From Amphiscolops sp. MND2022 (lineage: Eukaryota), in NCBI GenBank assembly GCA_964187785.1, contig OZ076409.1:10170001-10234000 (forward strand): a DNA stretch of 64,000 bases. Reading direction: 5' to 3'. Within the stretch, counting starts at the first letter, position 1, and each line of letters begins with the position of its first letter. The notes under the pieces were generated by a model, which saw only the letters and a list, made by a program, of their open reading frames with translations, did no database searches and had not been told where the DNA came from. Of the stretch, positions 1 to 63,917 are shown piece by piece. The translations under genes and the position numbers were made by a program.

Positions 1-1
1 T

Positions 2-37350: not shown

Positions 37351-37399
37351 TTGCCGGTACTGTTTTTCTCCCGAAAAACACTTTCATAGAACATGGGTG

Positions 37400-40300
37400 C
37401 CAGCTTCACTACTGGTCTTTTGAGTTTTCTATCTTAAGTTTTCACCAGCGCTGATCTCACTCGCCCATCGCTTCCATGGTAGACTTCCAACACTCTACCC
37501 ATCTTGTAGCGTGCTCTTTTTACATTCTCATCTACTATCCATACCAAATCTTTGACTTCCAATTGTCGAACTTTTTCTTTATTCCATTTGGGTCTCTCAT
37601 TCTATTGTGGTAAATATTCTCTGTTTCATCTGTCCCAAATCATATCTGCGTATGCTTGTGAAACTCTGAATACTTTTCGCAGATCCGTATATTGCTGAGC
37701 GTTAGGAATGAATGGGGTTGTAGGACTCGCACGTCCTAGTAGGAAATGATTCGGAGTCAAAGCTTCCAAATCTTCGGGATCATCACTGACACTAGTCAGA
37801 GGTCTCGAATTCAATATCTGCTCAACTAGACACATTGTTGTGGATAATATATCATCTGTCAATGTTCTGGTTCCCACAATCGCCAATATGGCCTTCTTGC
37901 AGCTTCTAACCATGCGCTCCCAAACACCTCCAAAATGCGGGGCACCTGGAGGGTTGAACCTCCATTTTTATTGCTTTCGAGCCATAGACTGCTCAATATC
38001 TGATTGATTCCAAGCTTGTATCCATTCGCACATTGCTCCAGCTACGCCCACAATATTTTTTCCATTATCACTTAAAATGATATTAGGTTTTCCTCCTCCT
38101 GCGATGCATCTCGTAATTGCAGCAAGACGTGCGTCGGCTTCCGGGCTGGGCACGACTTCAGTATGCACAGCTCTCATTGTTAAACATGTGAAAAAACAAC
38201 GCCATCGTTTCATTGATTTCCTCATGAATCTCTCTTCGAATGGTCCAAAATTGTCTACTCCAGTATTGGCAATGGGGAACTCTTTCTTCCAATCATTCTT
38301 TAGGTAAGTCTGCCATGAAAGGTTGAACTCCTCCAACATGTTGCATTCCGCACTTAACACACTTCAACTTCACATTTCTGAGCGCGTTTCGGAGTCCAAA
38401 TATCCGGTATTTTTGCTGCAAAATGCTGCGGACTTAATCCGTTCCTTCATGGTAGTTACTTGCATGCGCATCTTCAATCAATTTCCTCACTATCGTAAGC
38501 TTAGCTGATAGCAAAATTGGATGTTTCATTTCATAACTCGCATCATCAACACAAAGTCGCTTCTCAATCGCATTAGGTTCTGATCGTCCATAAATGGTGA
38601 CAGTTTGTTCAAGTGATCAGATGCTGTCATGGGTTTATCTGCTGCCAATGCTTGATAAGTTTGACCGAAGCATTCCATCTGGCTCTTCCTCAGTAACAGT
38701 CGGACAACTTGTTGCAACTCTTCTGTTATTACCACTTTTTCTTTGATTTTTGATTTGAACCGAAAGCAATAGGCGAAGATCCGTGTCATTCTTCTGAAAG
38801 AACCGATCTTATCCCAATCGATGTCCTTTTCTTCTGACACGACTTCAAAGACTTGTTCTATGTCTTCGTTTTGCTGAAATAGCTGTGGTGATGTTTGTGG
38901 CCAAGCACTTTAATTCTCTGGATGCCATGCCGGCACTGTGAACCACTCAATCTTTTCTAGTTCAAGAACAGATTTTCCTCTTGTTCCAATGTCCGCAGGG
39001 TTTAAAGATTTTTCGACATGTCTCCATTGATCAATGATTGAACAGTCAAGGACCTCGGCGACTCTGTTTGCCACAAACACTGGTTGTTTCTTGTCAGCCC
39101 CATGCAACCATTGCAAAACAGTTGTCGAGTCCGTCAAAAAGAAGGTTCATTCAATTTCAATGTCGTGTTCGTCTACGATCAGATGTTTCATTCGGGTTCC
39201 ATACACAGCTGCTTGTAGCTCTAGTCGGGTAATTGATTGTTGTTTCATTGGCTCTACTCGGCATTTCCCTACCACTTAGGCAAGCTCTCCAGTTTGTTGA
39301 TCTCGAAAGTACTAGACTAGATGCATAGTATGCACAAGGCGACCAGGGATGCATCGTCGAAAACATGCAAGTCCACTACTTCAGCATTTTTCGACAAATA
39401 CTTCCTTTTGATAGCCATCTCATTCATGTGATTCAACTCCGATGCCCAATCCTTGAATGCTATCTCGTCTTCTGGAGATAATTCTTCGTCCCACGACTGC
39501 CCATGTTTCGTCCAATTTCCTTTGCGCAACAATCTCATCCTGACAGTGAAAGGGGAAAACAGTCCCAACGGGTCAAACAGTAACCTTGGCTGGCACCTCT
39601 TCTCCTGTACCGCGGCAAATCTCAAGACAGTCTGACTCCACAATCCCCTGGAGTCCTAATATAGAGGTACCAAGGGTTCAGCGTCGAATGTTTTGCTTAG
39701 CGCGACTGATCTATCTTCCGGGGATACCAACTCCATCACTTTCTCTGAGTTGCAAATCCATTTCGTTAGTTGAAGCCATGGTCCGCTAAGGACTTTCGCA
39801 AGCTCCTGTACACTTCCACAGCTTCTTCCTCTGAAGCTACTGACTTCACAAAGTCATCCATATAGAAATTTCTAATAATCAAACTTGCGACCATCTCCTT
39901 GTCGCCTCCGCAATCTCTTCCGACTTGTAGCAAAGCATAGTTGACACATGTTGGCGAACTCTTAGCTCCGAAAATGTGCCTTCCTTATTAATACACAGCG
40001 ATAAGTTCCGTGTTGCTTTCTTCTCTCCACTAAAATCTGAGCACTTTGCAATCAGCAGGGGGTACTTTCACTTTGAGAAACATCGCTTCGACATCTGCTG
40101 TCAAGGCAATTTGTTATTCCCTGAATCTGAAAAAAAATCCTATCAGCGATTGAAGGAGGTTTGGTCCGGCCATCAAGTTATCATTTAGTGAAACAACTCC
40201 GAACTTTGAGAGGCAGCGTTGCAGACTCGTCTCACTTTGTCTGGCTTGTTCGGGTTCAGTACTGGAAGATGCGGAACGTACCACTGGAGGTCTGTCTTAG

Positions 40301-43300
40301 TGCTTTCAGGCTCTTCTTCATCCAGAATTTTCACAAATCCCTTTTGCACGTCCACATCAATTGTTTCTTTGTAGCGTTATTTCAGGTTCTCATCCTACTC
40401 CAGTCGGCGCTCCAGAGGCTTCAATTGACACACTGCTGATTTGTGGTTGTTTGGCAAATGCGGCTTTGCATTATTCCAAAGTATTCCGACCTCATAACTC
40501 TCTCCATCGAACTTTGTGGTTGCCTTGAGCATTTCGAGGGCCTTGTCTTCCTCCTCGGACATTCCGGATACGCTGCAGTTGGAAGCATACAATTTTATGC
40601 TCCACCAAGACTCACGTGATCCGCTAATGGGTCCACTTCTGCTGAAACTAGACTTTCAGTTGCAAGTTTTGCAGTCTCTTGTCGAGGCAATGGTTCACTG
40701 AGCATCCATCCCAGCTTCGTTCGCACTGCCCAGGGCTTTGCGTTTCTACATACTCTATATATGGTAGCTCTATGCAAGTGATAACAATCATGGCCCAAGA
40801 TGACTTTACATCTTTCAGGTTGATGATAGAGTCTTTCAAAACTGACAAGTGAGGGTATGTTTCTTTCAATTTCTTGAGATCGTACAATCGATTTCCCGCA
40901 TTTACGCCATGATGACTATATACCATGATATCTTCATTAGCCTTTCCGTCTTGATCTCCAATCCTTACTCGAAGTCGTTTGCTACTAATATCTGACGTAC
41001 CATGAATCCCTGCATCATTCAAATCCACTGGCTGTTCGGTCAGATTCAGCGCTTTCATCAGGCTCTCGTCCACAAAGAACAGACTTTCTCCAGAGTCGCA
41101 CAAAGCGAACGTTTCCAGAGTTTTGCTCCCACTCCCTATCGTTACTGGAATGACTGGAAGCACTCCACTGCTTTTCATTGATGACAAGTTGGAGACCTCA
41201 TCGACATTTTCAGCATTTTTCTTTTGTTCAACGTTCATGTATGGTCTGTGTAGCAATATGTGATGGAGTTTTCCGCAACCATTGACGTCACAGAGTCTAC
41301 CAGAGCAATTTCTCATCTGATGTGCGTCTGACAAGCATTTGAATCACAGTTTCAATTCTTCAGCTTCTTGTCCTCTTTCTTCAACGTTCATCATCTTGAA
41401 TTTTTCAAAATTCCATATCGGATGTTTGCCATAATTTCAGCCCACACTCACGCTGGTATTTCGAGTTGTCACTCGCAGTGTTTGTTGCTGATGTTGCAAA
41501 TGTGGAGTTTTTTGCCTTTCCTTTGTAGCTCGACTTCGCGCGATCAGCATTCGGGTTTGAAGACAAAAGCAATTCATCTTGAACATCTGCTATATCATTG
41601 AGCCATTCACTGAACACAGCGAGTCCAATTTGATACAGGTTCTTTTGCTTCACATGAGTGAGCCACTTCGTATTCATACCCATTGTTAATTTCCTTGTGG
41701 CACTGCCCAGAACTCCTTCTGAATTTATGTCTCCCACGTAGTTGAATTGTGTCAAAACATTCACGCAACTCGGCACTATTCTCGCAAACTTGATCAATGC
41801 GGCACCATCATAAGTTTTCATCGGAGGAAAGGAGTATATTCGCTTCAGCTGAGCGTTCACAACCATTTGAGGTTTTCCAAAGTTTCGAACTAGAACGTTC
41901 CACGCCACATTGTACATCTCAGCAGTGTACCCAAGGCCAGCAATCGCCTCTTTGCCCACTTTGCCCGTTACCATTGTTTTCAAGTGATTCATCTTTACAC
42001 TGTCGTTCATATTTGCTGCGTGGACGGTTGCTCGAAATAGTTGTAACCACTCTGGCCACTCAAATGGGTCACCTGAAAACTCTGCCATCTCCAGTTTTGG
42101 CACTCTAGACCTGATGAAGTAGTCGTCTCTAGCACTTGACGCTATGTTCGGCCCTTGACTTGGAATATTCCGCTTTTGTTCTTACAAACTGTGGTACTTG
42201 AAATGCACCACTCGGGATGCCTCCAAACGTAGGGATTAACCGATTCTGGTCTGCACTGAGGGTCATCGACGGCTTCGATGAGGCGATTTTCACTTCTGGT
42301 TGTGCTGTTGCTCTTCGACTGCCAACTCCGGAGACAGTCCTTGTTCTATCCCTTCCAATAACTCGCATAGCGGTTTCTGTGGATATGATCGGTTTGACTG
42401 AGGGTTTCAAGTCTCTCATTAGCGCGGAGAAATGTCCTCCATGCACTGTATCCTCCGATTGAACTGAAATCAATGGTGCTGAGACGTACGTTTGCTAGTA
42501 TACAGGTAGCACGTTAATCGACGATGCCACATTTTCAGCTTCTTCTGTCTTGTCCATTCATTCTGAAACTTTCGTCAGATTGTCATCTAGAGTCCCGATT
42601 GGTGAGATACTTTTGAAGCTAGACCCACAACTACTCGAAACTTTGGCCAGCTCTATTTACCTTTCAGCAATTCTGGCTTTGCGGGCCACCTATTCTTGTG
42701 AATCTGCTATCTCCTTTTCTTTTGCTTCTCGCTCCAGTTGTTTTGCTTCTCGTTCCAGTTTCTCCAGGCGCGTTTGCAGTTCTTCGTACTCTTTCAAAGC
42801 TTTCAACTCAACTCCAAATCGAGAACTCGTCTCACACTTGATGTTTATGAAACCACGGAGGTTTTGTTGCTTTTGGTTCTGTCACCTCGCGAATGTATGC
42901 TCAATTCTTCTATTGGCTCTGATCTAGCCCCATTTTGTCGCTCTTGGCTGTCATCCGCGTTATGACCATCGTGTTCTTTTTGCTCATCGTCTGGTTGTGG
43001 TTCCATTTGTGGTGAGGTACCATTTTTACTGGATTTGTCTGCTGCCACGCTTGCACGAACGTCTGTTAGTCTTTGCTTAGTTCAGCGTCTTCAAGACTTC
43101 ACAAATTGGCCCCAGCTTCTCCTGACTTCAGGAGAGCTTCATCTTTCATTTGGAAGTCAGACCGCTCTTGAAGCAACTCTTGATATGCTGTTGCATGACC
43201 TTCTTTGACGTCCTCGCCGTTTTCAATTCGTTTGTCGCGCAACTTTCGCTGTGGACGATTCTTTCATCAAAAGCACGTTTTTTTTCTTCAAGATCCAAAT

Positions 43301-43943: not shown

Positions 43944-44329
43944 AATGTAACAGCTGCTTGCCCTTATCCTGCTCTGAGGCTTGACAAACTTTACGCCACC
44001 CTGATCCGTTGCTTAGGTCTGTGGACCGTTACTAAACAAATCCTGGTTTTTTTGTTTAAAGGACTGTATCTTGTGGCTGGTGGGTCCAATTTCACCCGTA
44101 GGAATCTCCTGCGATCCCTCTTTGCACTCGTTACGATCCGATGTGATCCGTAACACACTTCCCTCACTGTAACTTCACGCGCTCCGGCTCTCCAACTATG
44201 AGAGTAGCTACTTAGTCGCTCTGACTCTAGCGAAAAGTTGTGAAGACTGAGAAGTTGAATATTCAGTCTCTTGGTCCTAAGACCCAACTTGACTATAGCT
44301 ATTCAGTAGCGAAAATCTCTATATAATAA

Positions 44330-45825
44330 TGTGGCGCAGCCTAGAGCTTGCGTTGGATCCGCGGTGCAGCATTGAAGGCAAATGACTCACGCATCTGCAA
44401 TAAATCCAGAGAAAACTCATCGCTTCATGGATTTTATATTGTATGGATTCATACATAACTTTTAATTATCAGCTATGTCTGAATTTGTTTGCTATTGTTA
44501 CTAGCCATATTTATAAAACATTACTCATTCATAAGTGATTTACCAGATGTTACATGGTGTTAACTTATTTGACGCATAACACTGTTTATCACGAATTCTT
44601 GTGAAAAGAATAAATTATACGTGGCTTCTATGTAACATTAAAGCATGCTGACTTAAGTATTTGAATTGAATTGCTGTACTAAGTTTGCAGCATATTGCAG
44701 TACAATTTCACATTTTTAATTTTCCTAACCATGGCATTTGAGAGTATGATTCATCATAACAATTTGATCACGCATGCAGTAATATGTTGAAATTAATACT
44801 TGCACTACATGAGTCATACTACGTGTTGCCACATTTTTCTCGTTAACGATGAACTGATTGGTACAGTTAGTGTTATGACCAATCAAAATGCAGGAAAATA
44901 TTCGTCATGCGGGAATCTATTTATAGAAGTGATGTAATTTACAAACGTATTTTTATATCAAATTGGGTACTATTTATTGTGATTGCATAATCATGATGTA
45001 ACCGTGACATTCCAAAAATTGGTTGTCATGCTGCTAAATTTAGCCCAAACCAAAAAGGAGAGTAAGAAATCCGATAATATCCATTCAACAGAAACCTTTC
45101 AGACTGATTAGACCTTTCTTTTCATCCTCACAAACTTTGTTTCAACCTTGATAACTTAATATTATGCGCATTTTCTTCAACTTTATTTCAACCTAATTTT
45201 ACTTTGCTCATCATTCTAATTGATTTTCTTCTCTCCAAAACAGCATTTTAACCTGACTAAAATGGGTAACAAGAGAAATAGAAGATCTAGACGAGGACAA
45301 TCACCCTCGCTTGAGAGAGAGTTGAGCACATCCGAAATAGAAACATCACAAGGTAATGAAACTGTTATCGGAACTTTAAATAACATTGAAAATGTTAGTT
45401 CAGTTAGGTAAGAAGAAATATCTTTAGACAGTGGGACACAAAATGAAGATGAAATGCAAATTTGGACTCAGAGAACATCAGATAAAACGAACAAAGCAGT
45501 AGCAAACTTAAGGAAAGAAATGGATGATAAACTAGAGAAAATACTGAAAGAGATGAAAAATAACAGAAGAACACAATCCGTACCAAACAGACGATATCGA
45601 GAACAAAACACCCCCAGAGCAGGAACTCAAAATACGCAAGTAATGAGGACGGTGAAGAAAACGCATCTGAGCCAGAAAATCAATATTGTGAAATACAGGA
45701 TAATCCTTTCAGGCCATTTAATTTAAACGAACATAGAACGCCAATGCAACCTTTGAGCATGCAAAACATTGATCTAAATGACTCTGTGGTCAAAAATGAG
45801 GACCGCACAGGAGAGGAGTATCACA
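44330..45825 (+). repeat. 5' LTR of element C
   Basis: Highly similar to 54788-56295; ends ...TCACA before the PBS. Confidence 0.88.
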
Positions 45826-46435
45826 TGGTGACAGGAGCTACCAAACCGCTTCATCGTCAAAGCTCAAACAATACAACAACAACACACAATGAACATCTGA
45901 TTGCTGAACCACTCAACATTCAGCTAGACCCCGTTAACCAAATAGCAATAGCTATTGAGAAATTAGCGAGTCGTAATTCACAACCATCACTCTTTCATCC
46001 AGAAAATACACTCACATTCAATGGTAAATTGGAAAAGAACGAGAAATTTGAATATTTTGAAGATCTTTTCCACACAACACTCCGAATGCAACCCGCATTA
46101 ACTGAGGAAATGAAAATAAGTCATTTTCACGCACATTTGCGTGGACTCGCATTGAAAACTTTCAAAAACATCCAACGAACACCAACAACGACGCTTGAAG
46201 ACATACTGGTAGTGTTCCGGAGAAAATATGTCAAGCCCGAATCTAGTGCGTCTGCAAAACATAAATTCCATCGCTTGATTTTTGACCCGGAACGCCAGAA
46301 ACTACTGGATTTCCTAGAAGAATTACAAGAAAGCGCCGAAAAAGTCTTCGGTGATACTGCATCACAAATGATAGAAAGTCTATTATATGCAAAAATGCCA
46401 CCACACTTGAACGGTTTTATTAATCAAGCCTATCA
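45262..46435 (+). pseudogene. gag: Gag of element C, starting inside the LTR; disrupted and truncated
   Basis: MGNKRNRRSRR start; stop at 45409 and a frameshift near 45630; FNGKLEKNEKFEYFEDLF...YAKMPPHL is homologous to B Gag. Confidence 0.85.
45826..45837 (+). other. Primer binding site of element C
   Basis: TGGTGACAGGAG, identical to that of B. Confidence 0.75.
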
Positions 46436-46439
46436 AGCC

Positions 46440-48489
46440 GTCGCGAACGGAAATCAACCCGACAGAAAAACTAGAAATGAATTTACGCAACGACATACAT
46501 GCAAAAGCTATCGAGGTTAATATCCAATGCTCTGGCATAGCCGAAGAAGGACAAATTTACATCCACACAGACAATGAAAACGATGAAAAAACACTTTGGG
46601 AACAAAAAGACATTATCAGAAATCAAGCACAAACAGAAACACACAATGAACCGGAAAATGAAATAACTGAATTACAAAATTTCCATAAACCAACTGCCGG
46701 AACAATAGATTATCGGGAAAGACACTTTCGAGACAACGCAAAAATTCGACTCGAACAAAATAATAACCCAGTCCTTCGCAATCTCAGAGCAAAAATAGAG
46801 GGTGAACTTTTTGATGAATCAGCGTTCACACAAGACAATCGCTACCAACATTACCTACAAAACATACCCCGTATCGAAATTCACCAAGATATTCTTGTAC
46901 GAAAATACTACAATGATATTGCACAAATCTCACACTACCAAAAACTCTTACCGAAACAGCTTCTCGAAGAGTTTCTACAGGCATTGCATGGACACATTGC
47001 GAACAACCCAGGAATAACGAAAATGATACAAGAAGCGCGACAGAAATACTATTTTCCATGCTTAGCAAAGCATCTCAAAATATGGGTACAAAACTGCCAA
47101 ATGTGCATTCAAAACAAAAGAATCCATAACGATTTACTGAAAACAGAACTTCTAAATTGTCCAGAATGGGACCTCGGTCCAGAAGTTATTCTTCAGATGG
47201 ACACCTTACCTAATCTCCCACCAAGTGGAGGTTTTGATAACATCATAACAGCAATTGATGTCTTCTCAAGATAATTATTTGCTCATCCAACAATCCGAAT
47301 CACAGCCCCTACAGTCGCGAGACTCATTGTGGACATTCTGTGCAAACGCACAGTTTTACCAACGACCATAATAACTGACATGGGCACACAAATCACCCGA
47401 GAAGTAGCAGCAGTGCTTGTAGTTGAACTAAAACATGCTTCAAAAACACATGCACAAACAATCGGCATGCTAGAACGCACTCATGCTACAATAAAAACAC
47501 ATTTGAAAGCAGCTACAGGTGATTTTCGCAATAATTGGCACAAATTCTTACCACTGGCTGTCTTAAATCACAACACAACGTATCATGCCAGCTTAGGATG
47601 TGAACCCACCCGTGTTTTCCACGGCAGGATACCACATAACATCCTAGACTACAAGCTAGGCTATAATCCTAACCCACGGTATACTCCACAGACTGACATT
47701 GCAGAAGAAGTACAACGCAGAATGGAGATACTCAATGACCAAACCAAAAAGAATATCATGCAGTCATACTTAAAATATAAAGCATACTATGACCGCAAGG
47801 CAAAAGCAGCACCGCTTACTACAACAGACTATTGGTACATACTGAACCCGAAGGCAGACACACAAGCAACAAAAATTCCGTTCCGAGAATTCCGTTGGAT
47901 AGGTCCCTACAAAGTCAAAAAAGACCTACCTAACAATACTTACTTTGTACGAAGGCTAGGGACAAACAAAACACAACTGTTACACCGAATACGTTTGAGA
48001 AAATTTACACCTAGTGAACCACTAGCCAATAATTTTGTCAGAGAAACAGATTGGCAAAAAGATGACAACATAATAGTAACACACGATGATGTGTATGCCC
48101 ATACATGGGATACAAACTTTGGTACAGATCCATTTGACACAGAACTCCCAGATAACGAACAGGATGACATACAAGAATATGTACCGATAAGCCGCCCATC
48201 CTCCCTCGAAATTTCAAAAAACAGTGGGGGAGCCCCGGTAGAACAATCTACCGTTCCTAATGTAGAAACCCCAACCGAAAATGCAGAAAATGAAATTGAT
48301 GTAATTGATAATCAACAAGACTCACTACCTAACCCTACTATTGATGCAAGAAAATCCCTCGAAAATACAACTGAAAATCAAGAAAACGATGAGGTTCAAA
48401 AAGAAAAACCCCCTGCCAATACACGTGGTGAAAAATATAATTTACGACCTAACCCAAACCCCAATTTCTCAGATTCATACACATACTAA
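46440..48489 (+). pseudogene. Integrase of element C with RNase H C-terminal stub
   Basis: CQMC, QMDTLPNLP, TDMGTQ, MLERTH, GPY, YNLRPNPNPN; in-frame TAA at 47272-47274. Confidence 0.9.
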
Positions 48490-48626
48490 AAACAGAAGAC
48501 TACTGAGACTCAACTTTCTCTCACTAGCATCCAATTCAAAATTCAGTAAGCAGAATTAAATATGGAAACAAAAAGGTCTGAAGATAGAAGTAATTGATAT
48601 CAGACATTAGTTTAAAAGAAACAAGT

Positions 48627-51600
48627 CTAATTGTTCTTAACGGGCGACCCTGACTTAGAAGTCATTTTTTTCTTCTTACCGCAGGCATCAGGGGCAGTAG
48701 AATCTGGGAACAATGGACAGTCGATTAGTCGACGAACCACAGGGCTAGGCATATGAGGCTGATTATTCTTCTCAGGAGATTTGCTTGGAGTGCTAGCCGC
48801 ACTGGAACCCCGACTCGAATCAGACTTAGCTTTATCCTCAGTGGGCATCCAGGGTTTTCCCTCTTCCGGAGCGCTCTTACTATAATATGCCTCCAATGAT
48901 GAACGAATCTCAAGGCGTTTGAATTACCTGGAAGACAGCAAATGCCAGACAGAGAATTTACGCCTGAGAAGGAGTCCTGGCCCATGAGAAAGCAAATCCA
49001 AAATACGAGGCAGCGAATTTGGGGACAAGACTCTTGACGGCAGAAGAGAACTCATTGGCATCGGATTTGAGTCCAGGCATGGGAACAACAAATAAAGGAG
49101 GAGAGACACTGGGGTTTCGCATTAAATGCGGATCAGACGAAACAACTCGATACGACTTTGTAGTTCGTAATGGCAAGAGAAGAAGCTCACCCATTCCTTG
49201 TTGTTACAAATCTTGTCAGATCGGAATTTTGTAATTAGAGAACAATACTCGCTAACAGCCACAGGCTTGTTGTGAGGCGCAATCCATTTCTGTTGGACGA
49301 AATATCCACATAAGAGTTGAATAGAGTCCACATAATGGACTTCACTACCGCCCAGCACCACAGCTTCATCGAATGATGATAATCTTCTGGAAAATGAAGA
49401 GGTAGTCAATTCGCTAGTCAGCAGAACCTTTAGGAAACAATGGTAGAAGGAGATAACTTGGGCACTGAAACGTCTCGGAGTAGTAATCTTGCTGTCGTTG
49501 ATGAGGTTAGATAAGTCAGGATCCAGCAAGAACTCATCAACAGTCTCATAAGGCAAGGTTTCGTCGTCCATGTTGAGAAAAAGGTAATTATCCCAATCTG
49601 CAACATTCCCAAGGTGAGTGGTTGAGAAATTTGCTTGTAATTGGGAATACACGAAGACACAGAACTGATTATACAAGCGGGAGCCCCCAGAGTTTGTCTC
49701 ATGTACTTCTTTGAAGGTCGAGTTGTATTGGCTGAGGATGTTTCGCGTGACGAATAGGCGAATGACAAAGACTCGGTCCTTGATAATCAAGTCATCCATC
49801 CCAGCGGCTGAAAAAAAAACAAACGTTCAAACTATGATCAGGAGCTCGGGTGGGAGTTGAAGCCAAAAATACAAACCTCTTGCATATGAAACCGGTAAGC
49901 CGGTACACGTCTGCTGTCACGAAGATGAACAACTACTCGGTCCTAATTCGTGATCACATGGTCCAGTATGACGACAGCTTGATTCAGATCATAGTCCAGA
50001 CTAGTGATTGCCTAAAGCAAGACAATGAGAGTAGAATACAACCAATTATGAATTTCAGACACAAAGGCACGTGTGAAATATGATGAGTAAACATTATGCA
50101 ATAATGAGTAATCTTTGCACGTGTGAAAATGAAGAAACTGAGTACAAATGCAAAACAACATATCTGATGACTCAGAATGCCTAGCGATGATGATTCAGAC
50201 TTAATAATCGAGATAAAAATTTTTTCTGAGAAGACAATTATGCCGCATCATGCTGCAATTTCAAGAAGTATAACGAACAATCTGCAACGGAAAAGCAGAG
50301 ACAAAAGTCAAAAAGCACTACATTGGCGTACAAATTGGCGGAAAGAAAACGAGGATGGTCAAAAATACAAAAATCACCAAGTTCAAAAGACTGAGAAAAT
50401 TTTAGTGTAGAAATGTGAAACCCCCTGGAATCGATAAATTGGTGGTGATCTTGGAAATAAATCGGAAAAGCTCCACTTAGAAATCTAAGACATACAATAA
50501 ACACCAAATGGAAATAAAATACAAAGGATATTAACCTTCTGGAAGTCGGGCGAAGCTGTCAGCCATGTGCTCCCAATGGCATAGCGCAATCTCACTATCA
50601 GGAAATCCAGAACGCTGCGGAAATCAAAACGGTCGAAAATTTGCCCAGATGGGACTAAGAGGGCACTCTCCAAGTCTTCCGCGTCAAATTTAGGAACTGA
50701 GCAGATCTGCTGGTGCTGAGGGAGGATTCGGGAGAGTGAACAAGTAAAGCGTCGAGTGAAGCCTGTCAGAAACCGCAAATGAACATCTTTATCAAGTAGG
50801 GCCAAAAAACCACTAATTGGAGGGATGAAGACTGCGGGAGAACTCGTCCGACTCGGTTATACTGCAATGCACATACTGTGTAGTGAGTTGCCTGCCCAGA
50901 AGTGCACAGAAAGCTTCGTCTCATTTGAACATGACGCAATCCGAAGGGAATAACTCTTGGACGTCTCGATCGAATTACCACAATAAGGAAGCAGTTCACG
51001 GAACATGTGTGTTAGCATTCCCTAAACAGAAGATACATTATTTAACACGAAAATTAATTCACGGATTGGCTAACTGATGGAAGAAACTTTACTCACCAAG
51101 ACTCGATGCGGTTGCCAATCATACTGTGATATGGGTTCTGTAGTTTTAGTTTCTTGGACCAGAGTGCTACCAAAACATCTAAAGTGCCTCCATGGATGAG
51201 TCCGGTTTTGAGGAGAGTGAGTTGTGAGAGTGTCTCTTTGTCCGGTTGGTTTGTGCTTGACTCCTGCGGGGCATCCAGTTGTCCAACACGGAGGTAAAAT
51301 CACCCAGCTTGGGTGCAATGGGGTACTCTCCCTTTGCTCTCTCCTTTGCATTTTTCAAAGCCATACCGGTTAACTCGTTGCGATACTTGTCATATAGTGG
51401 CAACCCAGGAGTTTCCATCCTTATTCGATGCTCTGTCACAAGGTGGGCATCGGTTCGGTAATGGCTAAGATTTCTAGTGGTCCTTTTGTCATGAGGGAGA
51501 GCTCCACAAGACACACACGACAACGATATTTGTGAGGATACCGTGCGGCATCCGCCGGGGCAGTGACGAAATACTTGAGGATGGGGTATTTGTGGTTCAT

Positions 51601-52640
51601 CCATCCTGCCAAGGTGTGCCTCGGTTTAGCACGTTTTCCTACTTTCTTGGGGAGTAGCGTCGTTTGTCTCAAGACCTTTTTAAGCATTGTACTGGCTATC
51701 GGAGTTGGAGGGTCGCCATATCCTGATAGAATGCTCTTCGCTCGAACCCGAGCTCTAGCTTCTTCGGCTGCTTCTGATAGAAGTCGCTCTAGTCTATCTT
51801 CCCCAGTATCTTTGAGACTTTCCTGACTATGTGGAAGCGAATGAAATGGACTGACTTTGTTTTTGTCCTTGTCTTGAGGTTTATCTTTGCCGAGATTTGC
51901 CGCTGAAATGAAGCGAATGAAAGGTGACCCTTTGTTGGCCAGCAGTCCTCTCCGTAGGGGTGACTCTAGGTTTAACCTCAACCTTCTCACTTGGGGAAGC
52001 AACTGGTGCAGATCCTGAAGAACATGGTAGAACTCCGCTCACAGGTGCATTAACCAAAGGAACTATCACTTGTTGGACGCAGTCTCTAACAGACTTGCAT
52101 GATTGCTGTTCTGGTTGGCTGACTTCCGCTACAATTTCGACAAGTTCGGAGAAATTGTCTTTGATTAGAACTTGAGGGTTCAAATCAGGAGGAATGTGAC
52201 ATTCAGCCAACGCTGATCTTTGAGAATGATCCGGCAACGAGACTGATTGCTGAGTCACAGGCCCATTGTTGGTCTTCGTAAATCTTTGAAAACTGACTTG
52301 CAGTTGAGCTGGGGAAGATTTTGAAACAAATTGAACTTGAGCTGAAATCAGCAAACAAGAAGTTGATATTTCCGCCCAAAAAATTGAAAACCGGAAGTTG
52401 ACAAATCAGAAGATAGTCGGCATAAATGCAAGTCTGGCCAACTCGCATTAGAAAATCCGTGATATCACAAAAAAAAAAAACAAAATACAGTCTGACTTAG
52501 TCAGAAGAACAATCAAAAATTCAAGCTTACCGCGTAGTACTGCAGTAAAAGATGAGCGAAGATTCATCGTTGGCCTCGTCCTTTTCTTCGGGGGGGGGGG
52601 TGGTTTTCCGCCGGGAATTGGAAGATCGTGGTGCCACCAT
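48627..52640 (-). pseudogene. Spliced antisense cargo gene of element C, homologous to that of B
   Basis: Introns 51022-51096, 50012-50535, 49808-49876 and probably 52342-52530. YRCRVCLVEL...SHYRTDAH zinc finger; colinear similarity with the B gene. Ends approximate. Confidence 0.72.
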
Positions 52641-53010
52641 TTCCAATTGACCAGGTGAATTAGAAATTCTTCATGGATAATAAAAACAAACTGAAGCGTG
52701 AATAGACGGAAATTAGTTTGAATTTTACCTATGAACTACAAATTCGAAAAGTAAAGCTGAGAAGAATTGGATGGTAAAAAATGGGAGAAATTTACGACAA
52801 AATTGACTCACAAACAGATTCCACTTGACTACAAAAACAAACAAAATTGCGGCGTGGCTTACGGCTGAACAAATTCTGAGCATGACAAATTAACATATTT
52901 GCGCAAATGCCGTGCGCTGATTGGATGAGCTTGTACGGACCAATCGATTCTACCAGAATGATTGGCGTCGTAGGCGGCAGTGCTGAAACGAATTACGCAT
53001 ACATGATGCT

Positions 53011-53024
53011 CCGCCCCCTAGTGG
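53011..53024 (-). promoter_or_regulatory. CTCF-consensus motif in the divergent promoter region of element C
   Basis: CCACTAGGGGGCGG on the minus strand, with three CCAAT/ATTGG boxes at about 52920-52965. Confidence 0.45.
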
Positions 53025-53706
53025 CAGATTAGTGTCATTTGCGGAAACAGACAACATCATGCAATACGGAATTAACTGAGATTGACCTAAAACAAATCAA
53101 CACTATGTGACTACATGTTTCATTGTTATTGATTCTGACCATCATGCATCAAACATCCGACATAAATGTGCTGAAATAGAAATTATTAGGCAGTATGTAC
53201 ATGATTTAGGGAAGTGAACCAAATTAATTTCGGATTTTATCATGTGTTTTAATAAAATGTCATGTAGCTTGGTTTTATTTTATACTTTTAATGATGACAT
53301 TAGTTAGTTTGCACGTTTTGTTTTCCATAATAGGAACTGAAAAATCCCAAAAATAAGATTAGTATCTGACAGAGTTTGTTGTTCAAAGTCCCATTCATAA
53401 AATTGTTTACAATTATTTTCCAACGTTGAAACCCTGTGAAGTGTGAAGACCGAAGAAATGGACCTCAAATGGAAATCATAAGATGAATTACATTTTGTTA
53501 TGGAGCTATTAAAATGAAGAAGTAAGAATATAATCCTACGCCTCTTACGGAATTGCCGGGAAAACCACAAACTAGAAGAAAGATGACACCGAGAATTGTT
53601 TACAACACCCCTAAAACCCGGGAAAACACTCACCAACTGAAAAGGAGCGAAAAATTTTTTCTACGACTTTTCACGAAAAGGATCAGTTGCTAATTTCGAG
53701 CTCAAA

Positions 53707-54825
53707 TGGACAATAGATATCCAAAAACTTCCCATCTCTTCACAATTTTTCTACAAATTTTCCCGGGCTGATAAATATTTCGAGCGATTCTGGGGAGGAG
53801 TTTCTCACGGAGCAACCCAACTCAGAACCCATGGACCTGAGATTCAGAATCGGGGGACCACTTAATGATCCCATGACCGCATTCGTAAATGAAGATGCTG
53901 CAAGATTGTTCGCAGTAAGTGAACCTGAATTGAGAGAAGATTCTGTGATCGATATCATAGGTACCGATATCGAAAGAGAATTGCTGAGCATGATCTCAGA
54001 GGATACTGAATTGCCTAACATTTCACCGATTTCATTCTTCGAATCGAACGGAAGCAATAGTGAAGAATTGCTCTTAAATGCCAACTTCGCGAATGTCCCG
54101 AAAAACAACTATGGTAGACCTGTGTTGGCTGTTCCACCTGTAAGAGCCGAAAGACCGGCAAATACCTATACGGTCTGATGCTGACAGTAATATCCCTCCA
54201 ACTGTCGTCCAAGGAAATGGGCCGATCAGACCCATACCTATTACGTCCGTGGTAATTCCACATGAGATTCCCCAACCGAACTATACTCGCCCGTATAACG
54301 GGGGAGGAATACTGCAAACACCTATGGTAAACCAGTTCGGTGCACTGGCCGCTCAATTCTAGTTACCAAATTTAGCTGCCCAAAACATGGTACAACCCCC
54401 ATACAACCCAAGTACAGAGATACTACAACCAGATGGGCCTGTTAATGTTGCATAATATTATAATGCCAATGGTCAGTTGTACCTCAGATACCCAAGGCAC
54501 TCATAGCAATATGGAGACGGCTGATGTGGGTCCTGCTCGGAGTGACAACAATGCACAACAACAGAGGAACCCCTTACGAAGGCAACTTAACCCTCCTGTT
54601 ATGTCTCATTTTTAGGGGAATTGTCACTGGAGCGGAAGGACTTACGACGAAGTTGCTCTTGATGCTCTGGCGGCCTATACAGCTACGACTGAATATCCAG
54701 GCGAAACAGTGAGAGTTAGAAACCTCAGATCACGGGCCTATCTAGATGGGTTCGAGGCTGCACTCATTTGCTTCAAGAATGCTGGCCTGTCGCAACCTAG
54801 AATTCAACCCTGTCGCTTGCGTTGA
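53707..54825 (+). pseudogene. Degraded sense accessory ORF of element C, positional equivalent of ORF3
   Basis: INISSDSGEE precedes ORF 53831-54178; acidic/Pro-rich fragments with stops; the last piece AYLDGFEAALICFKNAGLSQPRIQPCRLR crosses the LTR boundary. Confidence 0.4.
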
Positions 54826-56295
54826 ATCCGCGGTGCAGCATTGAAGGCAAATGACTCACCCATCTGCAATAAATCCAGAGAAAACTCATGGCTTCATGGA
54901 ACTTATATAGTATGGACTCATACTTAACTTTTAATCATCAGCTATGTCTGAATTTGTTTGCTATTGTTACTAGCCATATTTATAAAACATTACTCATTCA
55001 TAAGTGATTTACCAGATGTTACATGGTGTTAACTTATTTGACGCATAACACTGTTTATCACGAATTCTTGTGAAAAGAATAAATTATACGTGGCTTTAAT
55101 GTAACATTGACGCATGCTGACTTAAGTATTTGAATTGAATTGCTGTACTAAGTTTGCAGCATATTGCAGTACAATTTCACATTTTCAATATTCCTTATCA
55201 TGACATTTGAGAGTATGATTCATCAGAACAATTTGATCACGCATGCAGTAATGTTGGAATTATCATTTGCACTATCTATGAGTCATACTACGTGTTGCCA
55301 CATTTTTCTCGTTAACGATGAACTGATTGGTACAGTTAGTGTTATGACCAATCAAAATGCAGGAAAATATTCGTCATGAGGGAATCTATTTATAGAAGTG
55401 ATGTAATTTACAAACCTATTTTTATATCAAATTGGGTACTATTTTTAGTGATTGCATAATCATGATGTAACCGTGACATTCCAAAAATTGGTGGTCATGC
55501 TGCTAAATTTAGCCCAAATCAAAAAGGAGAGTAAGAAACCCCATAATATCCATTCAACAGAAAATTTTCAGACTGATTAGACATTTCTTTCCATCCTCAC
55601 AACCTCTGTTTCAACCTTGATAACTTAACATTATGCGCATTTTCTTCAACTTTATTTCAATCTAATTTTACTTTGCTCATCATTCTAATTGAAATTCTTC
55701 CCTCTAAAACAGCATTTTACCCTGACTAAAATGGGTAACAAGAGGAATAGAAGACCTAGACGCGGACAATCACCCTCGCTTGAGAGAGAGATGAGCACAT
55801 CGGAAATAGAAACATCACAAGGTAATGAAACTGTTATCGAAACTTTGAGTAACTTTGAAAATGTTAGTTCAGTTAGGGATGAAGAAATAGCTCTAGACAG
55901 TGGAACACAAAATGAAGATGAAATGCAAATTTGGACTCAAAGAATATCAGATAAAAGGAACAAAGAAGTAGCAAACTTAAGGAAAGAAATGGATGAGAAA
56001 CTAGAGAAAATACTGAAAGAGATAAAAAATAACAGAAGAACACAATCCGTAACAAACAGACGATATCGAGAACAAAACACCCCCAGAGCAGGAACCTCAA
56101 AATACGCAAGTAATGAGGACGGTGAAGAAAACGCATCTGAGCCAGAAAATCAAGAATGTGAAATACAGGATAATCCTTTCAGGCCATCTAATTTAAACGA
56201 ACTTAGAACGCCAATGCAACCTTTGAGCATGCAAAATATTGATCTAAATGACTCTGTGGTCACAAATGAGGACCGCACAGGAGATGATTTTCACA
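54788..56295 (+). repeat. 3' LTR of element C
   Basis: Matches the 5' LTR and ends ...TTTCACA; the start is approximate. Confidence 0.85.
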
Positions 56296-56330
56296 TAATT
56301 ATATACCTATCGTTTACAATTCTACAGTAA
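55731..56330 (+). CDS. Intact LTR-encoded Gag N-terminus of element C (about 188 codons) reading out into the flank
   Basis: Open copy of the frame that is disrupted in the 5' LTR. Confidence 0.55.
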   Translation: MGNKRNRRPRRGQSPSLEREMSTSEIETSQGNETVIETLSNFENVSSVRDEEIALDSGTQNEDEMQIWTQRISDKRNKEVANLRKEMDEKLEKILKEIKNNRRTQSVTNRRYREQNTPRAGTSKYASNEDGEENASEPENQECEIQDNPFRPSNLNELRTPMQPLSMQNIDLNDSVVTNEDRTGDDFHIIIYLSFTILQ

Positions 56331-58990
56331 ATATAAGCAAATATAAGTAAGTATAAATAAATGACATTTAAATGAATATTTTAAGTTATTGGCCATGTAA
56401 TTAAACTACGTGGTGATTTTGGCATGTTGGTTAGGTGGGCTATAAAGCATGTTTACACAATGTAAATATCATTAATTTCAACAGAGTTGCTTTTCGTTCA
56501 AGGTCATATGAGAAAATCACATTATAATTAATACATCAAAATTGGGTTTTCATGGGGTCCGACATAGGTCACATTGGGTGTTAATTGCTCGGAACCCAGG
56601 GGTGATACGAGGTAGTGTGGTTCGAGTGGAAAGTTGAGTTAGCATCTCTAGTATATACATTCTAAGTTTCGGGGTGACTGCATGAGTCCTTCTGAAAAAA
56701 GGGGGTGTATTTGCCTGCATCATTTATTTTGGTTTAAATTGTAATTTTCCAACTAGAATCCTGATGAGATTTCTGAGTGTTTTGAGTTATAAGTTTCATC
56801 AGTCACGTTCGAATTTGAGTTTCTGATCTCGCAATTGACTGGCGCCAACATTCTCGTTTTGTTATTTAGATCAGTATGGAAATTTCAGAAGCCGAAACCG
56901 GAAGTTAGAAAAATGGTCGCGTGTGAAAACATTGAACCGGAAGTTTTATTTTGCCTAAAAATCACTTTGAATATCTTACGTTGTGCTTACGTTCATTGAA
57001 AATTCTTCCGCCTTAATACATTGTCGCGGTACAGTTTAAGAGAACAAGGTAAGGTGTTTACTTTTTAAAGGCTCCATGGCCGAGACCAGAGGCGAGTTTG
57101 TGCAACCCTTCGTGACAGTTGCCACACCGACCGGGAGCGGGTCGTGACACTTGTTGATGTCAAGAATCAAGCCCGTTCAGTGCTGCTCAGAAATCGAGCT
57201 TCTCGACCACTCAGCTATCTTGCTTCGAAAACAAGATTTGGTTTATGAACTATCATGTGTCTAGAGCATCCTCCATCAACCACCAACGCTCTAATCACTG
57301 TTCCTACAACCTGCTGACACCACAACCTCAACAAGGGATTTTCATAAAAGATCGTATAAAATTGCGTCGTAATTGGAATCACGAGATGGAATATTGAAAA
57401 GTTAACATTTTGAAAAGCCTGTCGATGCAAAGCGAAAGCAAATCAAGCACAATTGAGTCTGTCTGGCAAGAAAGTTGATTGCTACATATACATGCTGATA
57501 AGTTTCTGCTTTGCCAAGAATATCGAACGAAGCACGATGTTAAGCTAGTAAACAGTTGCGTGCGTTCTGTTGTAAGTAGTGTGTAATCGACTGAACGTTT
57601 GAAGCATTGAAGCTACGATACCGTTTCGAAACTTACCGTTAATGCAGAAACACCAGAGAAATATGTCATCGATTGACACAACGATTTCGTTCCAAAAGAA
57701 GGAAGGTCAATTTACCGAGACTTTGTAACTCCAGGTCGCAAAAATTCACCTTGCGAATCCGCAAAAAACTAATTTGCAATGGTTTTTCTAACTTTTATTC
57801 AATAATCTACTCATCAACTCTCCAGAGAGCTGTCTAATTACTGTTGATATCGTTTGCGTTTCTAGGAGTTGCAAACAGATTATAAAAACTGAGAAACAAA
57901 TTACGTACTTTGTCATTTAGTCATATCTCGACCAATCTCGCTAAGTTTCTCAGATCCCAAACATACGAATTTTGAGGTCATTGCACACATAGGACCCTAA
58001 CATGGCGTTCAATGATTGTTGAAACTTTCGTTCGATTCGCATTGACAGTTTCTGAAAATTGAAAAAAGTCCGAAAATGACAGTATTTTTATCATTTTTGG
58101 ACTGGTTTTGGCTGTTCCTCATATCCCAGTCATTCGATTTTGATGCCATTGCACAAACAGGACCCTAATAAAGAGTAGCATGAATGCTTAGAAATCCGTT
58201 CGAATTGTGAGGACAGCGAAAATCGAAAAAAAAATTTGAAACGTGTGTTTTTTGGTCTTTATAGGACTATTTTCGGCTATATTTCTCAAATCCCAGCCAT
58301 GCGATGTTGGTGTCATTGTGCAGACAGGAACAATTTTCGGAACAAAAGAATGGCCCTGCTAAGTTTTTTTAAAAATCGTTCAGACAGTTTCCTGAAACTT
58401 TCATTGGAAAGTCGTGAGAAAAAGGTACGATTAAATATGTAATAAATGGAGACTAAGCATTGAATTGAAGTGGATAAAATAGTAGCTAAATATTTAATGA
58501 AATTTGAGTTGCCTCTTTTAGCAGCTGCTACAACATTATCAAACGTCATCTTTGAGTACTTTAAATTGTTGCTTGTTGCTTCTTTCAGAAATTAATTATT
58601 TATATTTGTTCGAAGTCATCGAAATCGATGTTTCTGTTCACTTTAATAGCTGTATTTTCTGTTGTGGTTTCGCAAACTTCCATTCTGATTCTGTTTGTTA
58701 CTATCAAATGAGGGAATCAACCGCTTGAATGCTTCTGTTGTTTTGAGCTTCTGTTGTTTCAAAGATGATATCTGTGAAACGAATTTCCAGCGCACAGTTG
58801 GCTCATTGTTTTATACAGACAAAAAGCTTTTGCTTCTGCAACTGCTCCATCATTTGTTCGTTCACGACATTCACCAACAAAGGCGAACTTCATGCTCAGT
58901 TCAATTGATCGTTATACCCTCTTCTGTTACCGTCGAAAAATGTTCGACTTAATAGACAATAAGCCCATTGTTTCTCAGAAGACAGGAGTT

Positions 58991-59911
58991 ATGTTTTGGA
59001 TCATCAGCGTTTGTGTAACATTTACTCTTGTTGCAAAAACAGTGACAGGAGATACCAATACCTTTCGTTCCACGGCATTCGAAGACCCAATAAATGGGAA
59101 ACGTTTGGACGCAGGAAAAGTTATTGAAACACGACAAGAAGCATCGAGTACAAAATGCGCTCTAGCTTGTTCTAAAAACGATGACTGCCTTTCGTTCGGT
59201 TTTTGTGGAGAAACCTCTTGCGAATTATACAATGAAGACATTTTTTCAACAGAGCATGGAGAGAACATTCTAGAAGAAGATGCAAACTGTAAATATTCTG
59301 GGATGAAGAAGGAATCTAAGCCAATATGCCAGCAAGATGGTGTGTTTGCAGACATACAGGGTGACGATGGAAAAAGTGAGTTTTGTCTAATAAGTGGTAA
59401 GCGAGTTGATACAGTGTGGGGCCAATGGGGAGGGGAAGAAACAGTATACGACCCTCCTGATTGGAAGTTAGTAAACAGGAGAGAGACTGTTATTGAAGCA
59501 GCCCATGAGGGACTTCTTGACTTGGGAGATTCTGAGCGAGCTTTAGTTTGGATCAAGTTTGTAGATCAAGAGATGACATGGGAGGATGCAAAAGCAAATT
59601 GCGAAACTTTGGGTGGAACATTGTTCTCCAGAGTAGATGGAACTGAGGAGCAATTAGAGTTCTTGCTACAGAAAATGAATGGAAAGAGACACTGGTTAGG
59701 GATCTACACTGAGGATCACATACTCTGGAAATCGGTGAAGGATGATATCGTCAGCTCAACGTTACTGCATTGGAAAACTGGGCAGCCAAACAATGTAGGA
59801 AATCAACAAAGATACGTCGCTAACCACCCTGCGTGGGAAAGAGTTCCTTTCATTGGTTTGGCTGATGACGAAAACTCAAATGTCAAGAGGTCAGTTTGCG
59901 ACATGTTGTGA
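58991..59911 (+). CDS. Secreted PAN/Apple + C-type lectin domain protein, paralogue of 8471-9421
   Basis: Signal-like MFWIISVCVTFTLVAKTVTG (the ORF is open from 58892); CALACSKNDDCLSFGFC; CQQDGVFADIQ shared with the paralogue; MTWEDAKANCETLGG, HWLGI, WKTGQPNN, VCD. Confidence 0.85.
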   Translation: MFWIISVCVTFTLVAKTVTGDTNTFRSTAFEDPINGKRLDAGKVIETRQEASSTKCALACSKNDDCLSFGFCGETSCELYNEDIFSTEHGENILEEDANCKYSGMKKESKPICQQDGVFADIQGDDGKSEFCLISGKRVDTVWGQWGGEETVYDPPDWKLVNRRETVIEAAHEGLLDLGDSERALVWIKFVDQEMTWEDAKANCETLGGTLFSRVDGTEEQLEFLLQKMNGKRHWLGIYTEDHILWKSVKDDIVSSTLLHWKTGQPNNVGNQQRYVANHPAWERVPFIGLADDENSNVKRSVCDML

Positions 59912-60696: not shown

Positions 60697-61134
60697 TCAC
60701 AGAGTTAGAAGAGATGTACATGAACTTCTAGTTTTTGAGTTTACGTAAAGGTACCTGTTACGACTATTTATCGGTGTTGTTTTAGAGTTAGCCGCATTGT
60801 GAGTTTTGACTGGGGTAGACGTCCTTGGTACGGAAACATTCTCCGTTTCAGAGTCAGAGTCTTGAACATTCACGTGGCCAGTTTGTTTCTTGTTTAAAGG
60901 CGCTATCAGTTTAAGCATTTCCTTTTGATTTTCCGCAAGTATTTTAGTCAGATCAGACATAATCTCCTTTCTTAGTGACGTTTTTATCTCAGCCAAGCCC
61001 TCTGGTTCTATCCTAGGAATCTTGCTGGAACTTGCTACAAGGGTATCAGGCGGAAAGTTTTCGGTTACAGAGGTTTCGAAATCACCAGAGACTAACTCAG
61101 CTACGATTTTCCTTTTCTGGCTTCTAGTTGTCAT
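60697..61134 (-). CDS. LTR-encoded Gag N-terminus of element E reading out into the flank
   Basis: MTTRSQKRKIVAELVSG...TTPINSRN then flank-derived RYLYV. Confidence 0.55.
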   Translation of the reverse strand: MTTRSQKRKIVAELVSGDFETSVTENFPPDTLVASSSKIPRIEPEGLAEIKTSLRKEIMSDLTKILAENQKEMLKLIAPLNKKQTGHVNVQDSDSETENVSVPRTSTPVKTHNAANSKTTPINSRNRYLYVNSKTRSSCTSLLTL

Positions 61135-63137: not shown

Positions 63138-63917
63138 GGGCCCCTCTTGAAGCAAGAGACAAGGGTAGACCGTGGCAATGCGGGATTTCTTTTTTCATTA
63201 AAACTGAAGGGCGGCTGATGTATTTTCGTACTTGGTGGGGACCACGTCCTCTTCCCGCTTTCATGTATTCAATTTTCTTCTCCTCTTCTTCTAAGTCGAG
63301 TACCATTTTTTCCAGATATTGCATTTCTTCAGGAGAAATCTCGGGCGGCTTGCTTTTCTCGTTCAGGTCATTCAGGGGACTATCAGGACAACGGTTTTTT
63401 TTCGGTAGGGCAGCTACTCTCGGTGCGTAACTACCACGTCCCACAGCCGCAAAGTAATTGCGGTCTTCTATATCTAGGTTGTATGTAGCTTCCAGCTCCA
63501 TTATTGATGGCTCGTTTTTATTCCCCGGCTTGATTGTCTCCGGCGCTCTCTCATTTCCTAGCTGAGGGATGTTGAATTTCTCTTTTAGCGGCATTGTAGG
63601 TTTCAACGTGGAGGTCTGGCATATTGGTGAGTCTGGCTCCTCATAGTAGCTATCGGAGTCCGATATTGAACCTCTTGCGGGGGGCAGATCAAACGAAACT
63701 TTAGGAGCTTTTTCTTTTTGGGAGTAGGTTCCGTTTTCTTTACGTCGCAGTCTGTTTCAAAAGTTGAATCCAGTTCGGCGTCAGTGGATCGCCAAGCCTC
63801 TAGTGATGAGTCGCTTATATTCAATTTTCCGACCATGTTCACGGGCACTGTTTTAATTGGCGTGCTGGTCATTCCTTCATCCGATGAGATGTTAATGTCT
63901 AAGGAGTAGCCGTTCAT
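63043..63917 (-). pseudogene. Accessory ORF3 of element E, frameshifted, ending inside the LTR
   Basis: INISSDE, PKKKK, NEPSIMELEATYNLDIEDRNY, GRGRG; ORFs 63603-63917 and 63043-63606 are in different frames. Confidence 0.65.

Follow-up and report, generated by a model that had tools for sequence, protein, structure and literature searches.

A 64,000-nucleotide stretch of the 1.07-Gb Amphiscolops sp. MND2022 genome (assembly GCA_964187785.1, contig OZ076409.1, positions 10,170,001 to 10,234,000 of the forward strand; hereafter the window, numbered from its first letter) contains two Ty3/gypsy long terminal repeat (LTR) retrotransposons, B and C, each carrying a gene on the strand opposite gag-pol. 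An initial annotation, made from the letters alone, had proposed that the antisense genes of the two families are homologous, share an intron position, predate the split of the families and were kept under selection, defining a clade of complex retrotransposons. The comparison of both copies with relatives in the same genome makes it probable that B and C represent a large gypsy group that carries a spliced antisense accessory gene between the integrase and the 3′ LTR. As modelled here, the gene would have a zinc-finger exon followed, after a phase-0 intron, by an exon with an RNase H-like fold; a second phase-0 intron would separate the latter from an 82-nucleotide (nt) exon, and a phase-1 intron would separate that from the last exon, which is long and helical. 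A promoter of its own would lie in the 3′ part of the element, its transcript would be spliced, and its product may serve the element in trans as a regulatory or targeting factor, as retroviral accessory proteins do.

Ten relatives of each gene, spanning 40–90% identity, were taken from ranked lists of matches in the same genome. Since a blastp comparison of the window copies, open reading frame (ORF) by ORF, gave only weak similarity (best E 0.001 and 0.027), the alignment by eye in the initial annotation needed a real test. The window copies were therefore read through with an X at every stop or frame break, and their Smith-Waterman score was 170 against 39.8 ± 4.9 (maximum 66) in 300 shuffles (z 26.5). 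Exon profiles compared by hhalign matched colinearly, with E 2.4e-9 for the finger exon, 1.7e-6 and 2.6e-5 for the middle exon (two values because E2 and E3, treated as separate segments in C, form a single exon) and 1.1e-21 over 310 columns for the last exon, and the non-colinear profile pairs, 16 of the 20 compared, all had E ≥ 0.0095. When L031 (B type) and L023 (C type), two loci with open exons, were spliced in a script and aligned, the score reached 364 against 42.4 ± 5.4 in shuffles (z 59.6); identity was 23% in the 822 aligned columns. The motifs on which the eye alignment had relied also lie on the minus strand where they were read, namely FCRVCKRDV (21523-21497), GLPIYNK (21406-21386) and AYNELCNFVY (19961-19932) in B, and YRCRVCLVEL (51528-51499), GLPLYDK (51406-51386) and LYNQFCVFVY (49676-49647) in C. 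These comparisons, far above the shuffled background for open relatives and window copies alike, show that the B and C antisense genes are homologous and have the same architecture, bearing out the central claim of the initial annotation. The gene of element C maps to the window as follows.

48627-52735, minus strand: antisense gene of C overall, tail-to-tail with the integrase
52451-52735, minus strand: probable first coding exon and 5′ region
51097-52341, minus strand: long exon whose N-terminal part is of low complexity, followed by the zinc finger (51528-51443) and a helical region
51022-51096, minus strand: intron 1, phase 0, GTGAGT donor, common to B (21131-21005), alignment column 216
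50536-51021, minus strand: exon (E2+E3) that includes the region of RNase H-like fold; reading frame interrupted in window C
50012-50535, minus strand: C-family-specific intron, phase 0, without B counterpart (alignment column 379)
49877-50011, minus strand: 45-codon exon (E4) with an in-frame stop (ITN*DRVV)
48627-49807, minus strand: 82-nt exon and last exon fused in frame, intron 3 being lost in this subfamily; decayed; stop codon 48627-48629

The corresponding gene of element B comprises:

18855-22715, minus strand: antisense gene of B, ATG at 22715, stop codon 18855-18857; decayed
22579-22467, minus strand: first intron
21131-21005, minus strand: intron
21004-20383, minus strand: exon
ending at 20246, minus strand: intron
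20245-20164, minus strand: 82-nt exon
from about 20020 to the stop codon, minus strand: last exon

By the best splice sites, B-type genes (L031, L035, L037) have three introns downstream of the finger exon, in phases 0, 0 and 1, and C-type genes (L021, L023, L025, L026, L028) have four, in phases 0, 0, 0 and 1; L022 and L019 share the first three C introns, and no convincing fourth junction was found in these two. In the L031/L023 alignment the B introns fall at columns 216, 424 and 451 and the C introns at 216, 379, 424 and 451, with matching phases, and the splice consensus is conserved in three B and seven C copies. Three introns are thus common to B and C, exact in both position and phase, and C has one more, a phase-0 intron at the same position in L019, L021, L022, L023, L025, L026 and L028. 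The phase-0 GTGAGT intron noticed in the initial annotation six codons after a Trp in both families is real, 51096 and 21131 being its first bases: the exon ends at 21132 in B (ACTGCA/GTGAGT, the slash marking the junction; next exon from 21004) and at 51097 in C (GTCTTG/GTGAGT; next exon from 51021 after TCTGTTTAG). The second intron, placed before MQGTDW in B and AGMDD in C, is likewise shared, and exactly so in open-framed copies of both families, where it has phase 0; the exon between the last two introns measures 82 nt in both. The 1-nt discrepancy that had been noted there is a lesion and no real difference, as window C lacks one base: from the acceptor to the GGG ATG of the 82-nt exon it has 5 bases where open copies have 6.

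The predicted joins gain support because P0155 and P0153, single-ORF homologues from other assemblies, run without indels across the intron 2 and intron 3 junctions, and because a natural intron loss falls at a junction. In the subfamily of window C, L019 and L020, intron 3 is lost exactly at the predicted junction with the frame continuing (window 49742-49719), so that RNILSQ/YNS is continuous in all three copies. Such a precise loss is what recombination with cDNA of the spliced antisense transcript would be expected to leave. Introns on the antisense strand survive retrotransposition, since they cannot be spliced from the genomic RNA of the element, which is the logic of antisense-intron reporters.

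The other boundaries in C fit the same model. The middle exon (E2+E3) is a single open exon in L019, L021, L022, L023, L026 and L028, and a hidden Markov model of the B middle exon (B_E2) matches C-type exons at E 4e-10 and 6.5e-9. The 45-codon exon is bounded by the acceptor TTGCTTTAG before 50011 and by a donor at its end at 49877 (CAAGAG/GTTTGT), and the acceptor TTTTTTTTTCAG precedes 49807. From there tblastn traverses the stops of the last exon (49805-48639), and the stop codon TAG follows SPVKNN. The 5′ parts of both genes are putative. Upstream of the finger exon, B-type genes have further conserved coding segments, one of them from the ATG (window 22715); C-type genes have one long exon instead, which is one open frame of 496 amino acids in L024. 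The long exon of window C would start near 52341, after the acceptor CTGATTTCAG, and the ORF at 52448-52735 upstream of it ends in GKLEF, like Met-initiated ORFs of L019, L021 and L024. The first intron of B (about 22579-22467 on the minus strand, about 110 nt; 1188-1313 in L031) is far better conserved than its flanking exons, with 92.9% identity between L031 and L037 against about 65% in exons, and has long invariant runs in seven copies. It had no Rfam match, and on neither strand did its folding energy stand out from that of shuffled sequences (z -0.49 and -0.38); it may act in cis on one strand or the other.

Selection on the gene was assessed by the ratio of nonsynonymous to synonymous substitution (dN/dS) in the six pairs with unsaturated synonymous sites, giving 18 exon comparisons. 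The ratio was 0.03–0.27 in all except one, and the exception (0.50) was the last exon of L029 compared with the decayed window B. In deeper pairs the proportion of synonymous differences (pS) was saturated, and that of nonsynonymous differences (pN) was 0.12–0.35 within subgroups. The claim that the gene was kept under selection agrees with this pattern, which is that of purifying selection.

The gene is tightly linked to the element. At the places chosen by the gene, a gypsy integrase follows the gene's stop codon closely, on the opposite strand, in 22 of 22 (20 loci and the two window copies). A converse test used integrase matches absent from the gene's match list (n = 6), and finger, middle and last exons were present in order on the opposite strand in all six. 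Gene and integrase are therefore tail-to-tail in all 28 places, the gene lying between pol and the 3′ LTR on the strand opposite gag-pol, which is why these elements can be called ‘complex’ retrotransposons, as had been proposed. First-look searches returned at least 6910 candidates for the last exon of B, at least 3365 for that of C and at least 18856 for the C integrase, figures that are lower bounds of matches and not copy numbers. Most frames in these candidate listings are open, and many diverged copies have frames of 400–500 codons. The antisense gene thus appears to be present in most copies of the families and conserved between them, unlike one-off transductions. The host elements in the window are organized as below.

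10184-27595: element B, full span, with LTRs at 10184-12444 and 25206-27595 (about 98% identical)
12009-18684, plus strand: gag-pol of B in four ORFs with Pfam matches to DUF1759 gag, protease, RVT_1, RT_RNaseH and integrase
44346-56296: element C, full span, with LTRs at both ends
44346-45826, plus strand: 5′ LTR of C, ending in CA, 94.6% identical to 54815-56296 over 1484 columns
45220-46520, plus strand: gag region of C in several broken frames (ORFs 45220-45411, 45412-45726 and 45564-46520), the ORF start lying inside the LTR
46411-48489, plus strand: integrase of C in two ORFs, Integrase_H2C2 at E 2.3e-12 in 46411-47274
53717-54178, plus strand: ORF of 153 amino acids between the antisense gene and the 3′ LTR of C, without Pfam match; possible third ORF
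54815-56296, plus strand: 3′ LTR of C, pairing with the 5′ LTR

Both B and C are Ty3/gypsy LTR retrotransposons. In B the domains follow the Ty3/gypsy order (Asp_protease, RVT_1 at E 7.2e-21, RT_RNaseH at E 2.4e-13, then Integrase_H2C2 and rve), and the C integrase is 50% identical to that of B over residues 1-378. Unlike B, the C ORFs had no Pfam match to RVT_1 or protease, nor did the gag ORF at 45564-46520 match any Pfam family, so that only gag and integrase are retained in window C; its relatives have open frames of 1650–1680 amino acids. Because gag is broken and integrase is present without protease, reverse transcriptase or RNase H, and because its LTRs are 94.6% identical, the window C copy is an internally deleted, older insertion that has lost these three functions. 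A primer-binding-site-like run, TGGTGACAGGAG, directly follows the C 5′ LTR. In both elements the LTR ends in CA and the same run follows at once (12009-12456, 45220-45838), and the gag frame begins several hundred bases within the LTR and reads across this run (MVTG). The same LTR-borne N-terminal ORF recurs at 27106-27606 and 55689-56330, within the 3′ LTRs, and on the minus strand in fragments resembling the LTR (33049-33651, 60697-61188). Extra sense-strand ORFs lie between the antisense gene and the 3′ LTR in B (23223-23891 and 24369-24989, plus strand) as well as in C (53717-54178), and 63043-63756 (minus strand) was listed with the same group, which had no Pfam matches. The extra ORF of B is tandemly duplicated with a period of 1146 nt within 22701-24146, and this ORF may be a third gene of these elements.

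The predicted antisense protein has about 1000 codons. Its finger has the pattern C-x2-C-x16-H-x5-H, which we take to be like that of BED fingers, with Cys60, His80 and His86 invariant and Cys63 nearly so in 16 sequences; among the 16 members, the finger exon gave sub-threshold Pfam hints to zf-C2H2_ZN292 and zf-C2H2_jaz (two members each) and to zf-met and SF3a60_Prp9_C (one each). The middle exon, modelled from a 15-row alignment, was predicted to have the order β1-3, α, β4, α, β5, α, in which strands and helices succeed one another as in RNase H-like folds. Its top Foldseek row was the hAT transposase Hermes (4d1q_G, E 4.4e-3, probability 0.89), which took eight rows among ranks 1–22, none of the rows reaching E ≤ 0.001. 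By VIA-align the best scores went to the ISCth4 transposase (Z 5.7, root-mean-square deviation (rmsd) 3.5, 95 aligned), an INO80-complex chain (6hts_H, Z 5.7) and glucokinase (Z 5.3); Hermes had Z 4.1–4.5 (rmsd 4.5–6.4, 104–155 aligned), a range also occupied by integrases, P-element transposase and sugar kinases, and fold scores this weak (Z ≤ 5.7) are no evidence of kinship. The only invariant columns among 15 middle-exon sequences are one Trp and one Val. The last exon was modelled as all-helical, with a predicted local distance difference test score (pLDDT) of 65–94 in 10-residue blocks over residues 11-210, and ends in a Ser/Lys-rich basic tail; among Foldseek viral models its best E was 0.036, none being ≤ 0.001. 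The model would fit a non-catalytic, nucleic-acid-binding accessory factor with a zinc finger and a degenerate RNase H-like domain. That the gene descends from a BED-finger transposase is a lead and not a finding, and for a capture from a free DNA transposon the only transposase link is a weak fold-level resemblance. The last exon had no Pfam match to the hAT dimerisation domain (PF05699), and zf-BED was not matched either. A word-indexed protein search returned 27 ENA proteins, none of them named, and a representative protein library gave 959 clusters at E ≤ 0.001, of which the 10 looked up carried no protein name. Longer protein searches from L031 and P0155 found nothing, which is a weak negative, and no relative was found in the metagenome contigs searched with P0226.

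How the two families came to share the gene was approached through divergence of gene and integrase. In the integrase tree B and C stand on opposite sides of a branch with a Shimodaira-Hasegawa-like approximate likelihood ratio test (SH-aLRT) value of 100, a clean separation that the gene shows as well. Within families the modules disagree: integrase pS < 0.35 goes with last-exon pS > 0.7 in 24 of 107 pairs (10 of 53 in B, 14 of 54 in C), and the reverse discordance, with a younger gene, occurs in three pairs. L031 and L037 are 95% identical in nucleotides over the 2.1 kb end of pol, at most 65% in the gene and 75–77% in the 3′ LTR, with a single breakpoint between pol and gene. As there is one breakpoint and the whole 3′ part moves with the gene, this is recombination between elements, and an independently inserting cassette does not fit. 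Since the modules recombine, the comparison of gene and integrase trees suggested in the initial annotation cannot tell vertical descent from lateral exchange. Its claim that the gene predates the B/C split is accordingly plausible without being readable from trees: an old common origin is favoured because the B and C genes are deeply diverged, are placed identically and show no mixed B/C combination in 28 places.

The rival to this common origin, that the gene was shared by lateral recombination between lineages or captured twice from paralogous sources, seems to us improbable. The frequent recombination between pol and the 3′ module just described would make a transfer easy, and capture of paralogous source genes would also yield shared introns; against this, the two families agree in position, orientation and tail-to-tail spacing, they differ more in the last exon of the gene (identity 0.19–0.27) than in the integrase (0.44–0.56) in all 121 pairs, neither a B-type gene with a C-type integrase nor the reverse was found in the 28 places, and no free-standing copy was seen. 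A further step removed, and very unlikely, is that the antisense unit is an independent mobile element, such as a hAT-like DNA transposon, inserting site-specifically behind gypsy integrases. Such an element would account for the discordant divergence of integrase and gene and for a protein in which a zinc finger is joined to an RNase H-like fold headed by Hermes in the Foldseek rows. The diverged block in L031/L037, however, begins where pol ends, spans the gene and continues into the LTR without a second boundary, as a single crossover would leave it, the orientation is the same in 28 of 28 places, no acidic triad is conserved and the fold scores are weak (Z ≤ 5.7).

Still harder to credit is that there is no gene, and that open frames and similarities stem from composition or from a conserved non-coding function of the 3′ region. 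This would explain why no known protein family is matched and why the window copies are full of stops, yet it leaves unexplained the saturated synonymous sites beside low non-synonymous change, the open frames of 400–500 codons in diverged copies, the conserved GT..AG boundaries and phases, the natural intron-less homologues and the parts of the last exon that model confidently as a helical domain. Several points nevertheless weigh against a functional spliced accessory gene in these elements. Promoter, splicing and translation rest on sequence conservation, and the 20 loci were hand-picked from ranked lists, with six integrase-selected loci examined beside them. Both window copies are pseudogenes, dead relics. 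That of B has an in-frame stop at 21437-21439 (Trp in relatives), and its frame shifts four times or more (within the first conserved exon and near 20445, 19875 and 18990). That of C changes frame at least three times in the long finger exon, which tblastn follows through frames 3, 2, 1 and 3, and has an in-frame stop in the 45-codon exon and a last exon open for 234 codons only (49122-49826, against 415–441 amino acids in relatives). As both copies carry stops and frameshifts, some of their frame breaks are lesions and not introns; reading them as extra introns was rejected, the relatives being continuous at those places. No exon reached the Pfam cut-off in 10, 8 and 16 sequences, Transposase_28 (PF04195) included, and profiles of the three exon alignments against PDB sequences returned chance-level rows only (ApcE E 0.032, HINT1 E 0.58), as did the ESM Atlas (best score 0.80). 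Mean pLDDT is low for both models (61.4 for the last exon, 60.1 for the middle exon), and for the last-exon fold the best Foldseek PDB hit had E 1.1 and the best score of a wide VIA-align search was Z 5.1 (Fel d 1), neither of them convincing, like the viral-model rows. No D, D, E triad was found in the RNase H-like exon, where no acidic column is shared across B and C, and the third residue, expected beyond this exon, was not located; a working DDE enzyme is therefore unlikely, and the fold assignment is weakened too.

With these points taken into account, the spliced antisense accessory gene of a large gypsy group is still the reading we hold to be probable. A more specific history, in which a huge clade of animal gypsy elements anciently took in a BED-finger, RNase H-fold DNA-transposase gene with its introns, kept it catalytically dead as a reverse-strand accessory protein and shuffled the 3′ module against a few gag-pol backbones, is doubtful at present, if somewhat less so than the rivals above; were it true, these elements would stably combine the two great classes of mobile DNA and would carry the kind of accessory gene otherwise typical of retroviruses. 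The thousands of copies, many of them deeply diverged alleles, would offer comparative material on the function of antisense genes of LTR elements. The B and C genes also suggest that intron-rich genes can persist for long inside a retroelement when reversed, and the precise intron loss in one subfamily would be a natural record of splicing. The mosaic between pol and the 3′ module points to module recombination, which matters for classifying and dating such elements.

Elsewhere in the window, positions 1-7000 form a G+C-rich block (51–53% against 35–45% elsewhere) with plus-strand ORFs at 2-1384, 2178-3602 and 3710-6430, of up to 906 amino acids; these long ORFs had no Pfam match, and the block may be another mobile or virus-like element. 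Remains of another retroelement lie at 40648-42181 (minus strand; DUF1759 gag, E 1.3e-15). Element C is flanked by further copies (43946-44331 and 56295-56816) of repeats that form a tandem pair, with a period of about 1132, at 35191-37432. PAN and C-type lectin domains occur in two paralogous ORFs of one exon each (8426-9421 and 58778-59911, plus strand), which stand 50 kb apart with the retroelements between them and, being cellular, mark the host as an animal.

An open-access literature word search returned no title or abstract start describing such a gene in an animal gypsy element, which is not proof of absence. The closest arrangement is known from plants, where Retand, Grande (gene23) and RIRE2 have additional antisense ORFs between pol and the 3′ LTR, mostly TRP28 (PF04195); according to the papers cited, the function of these proteins is not established, a regulatory nucleic-acid-binding role has been proposed, and tandem repeats are frequent in the region (PMC11963269, PMC7264820). 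The genes of B and C share with them the place, the antisense orientation and the family-wide conservation, and element B likewise has a tandem duplication in that region (22701-24146), as is common in Retand. They differ from them in the animal host, in an unrelated protein without PF04195, in a length of about 1000 codons and in 3–6 conserved spliceosomal introns; the word ‘intron’ does not occur in the main text of either plant paper (PMC11963269, PMC7264820). In human T-cell leukemia viruses, HBZ (HTLV-1) and APH-2 (HTLV-2) are minus-strand proteins made from spliced antisense transcripts and act as regulators, as summarized in PMC11963269; the papers on the plant elements draw on such retroviral proteins as a functional analogy. 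The gene described here occupies the same minus-strand place in the 3′ part, without relation in sequence or fold, none of the viral Foldseek rows being ≤ 0.001. With hAT transposases such as Hermes it has in common the order of a C2H2/BED-like finger, an RNase H-like fold and a large helical region; in contrast to them, it has neither a zf-BED nor a dimerisation Pfam match, shows no conserved acidic triad and moves as part of a retrotransposon, and other RNase H-like folds score equally well or higher. Boty-like gypsy elements of Botrytis cinerea reportedly carry an antisense gene, brtn (Zhao et al. 2011, Virology 417:248), the likeness being an extra antisense gene in a gypsy lineage. Neither the plant nor the fungal antisense genes are known to have an established function. 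The antisense gene of B and C differs from the known antisense ORFs in host kingdom, protein family, size and a conserved set of introns.

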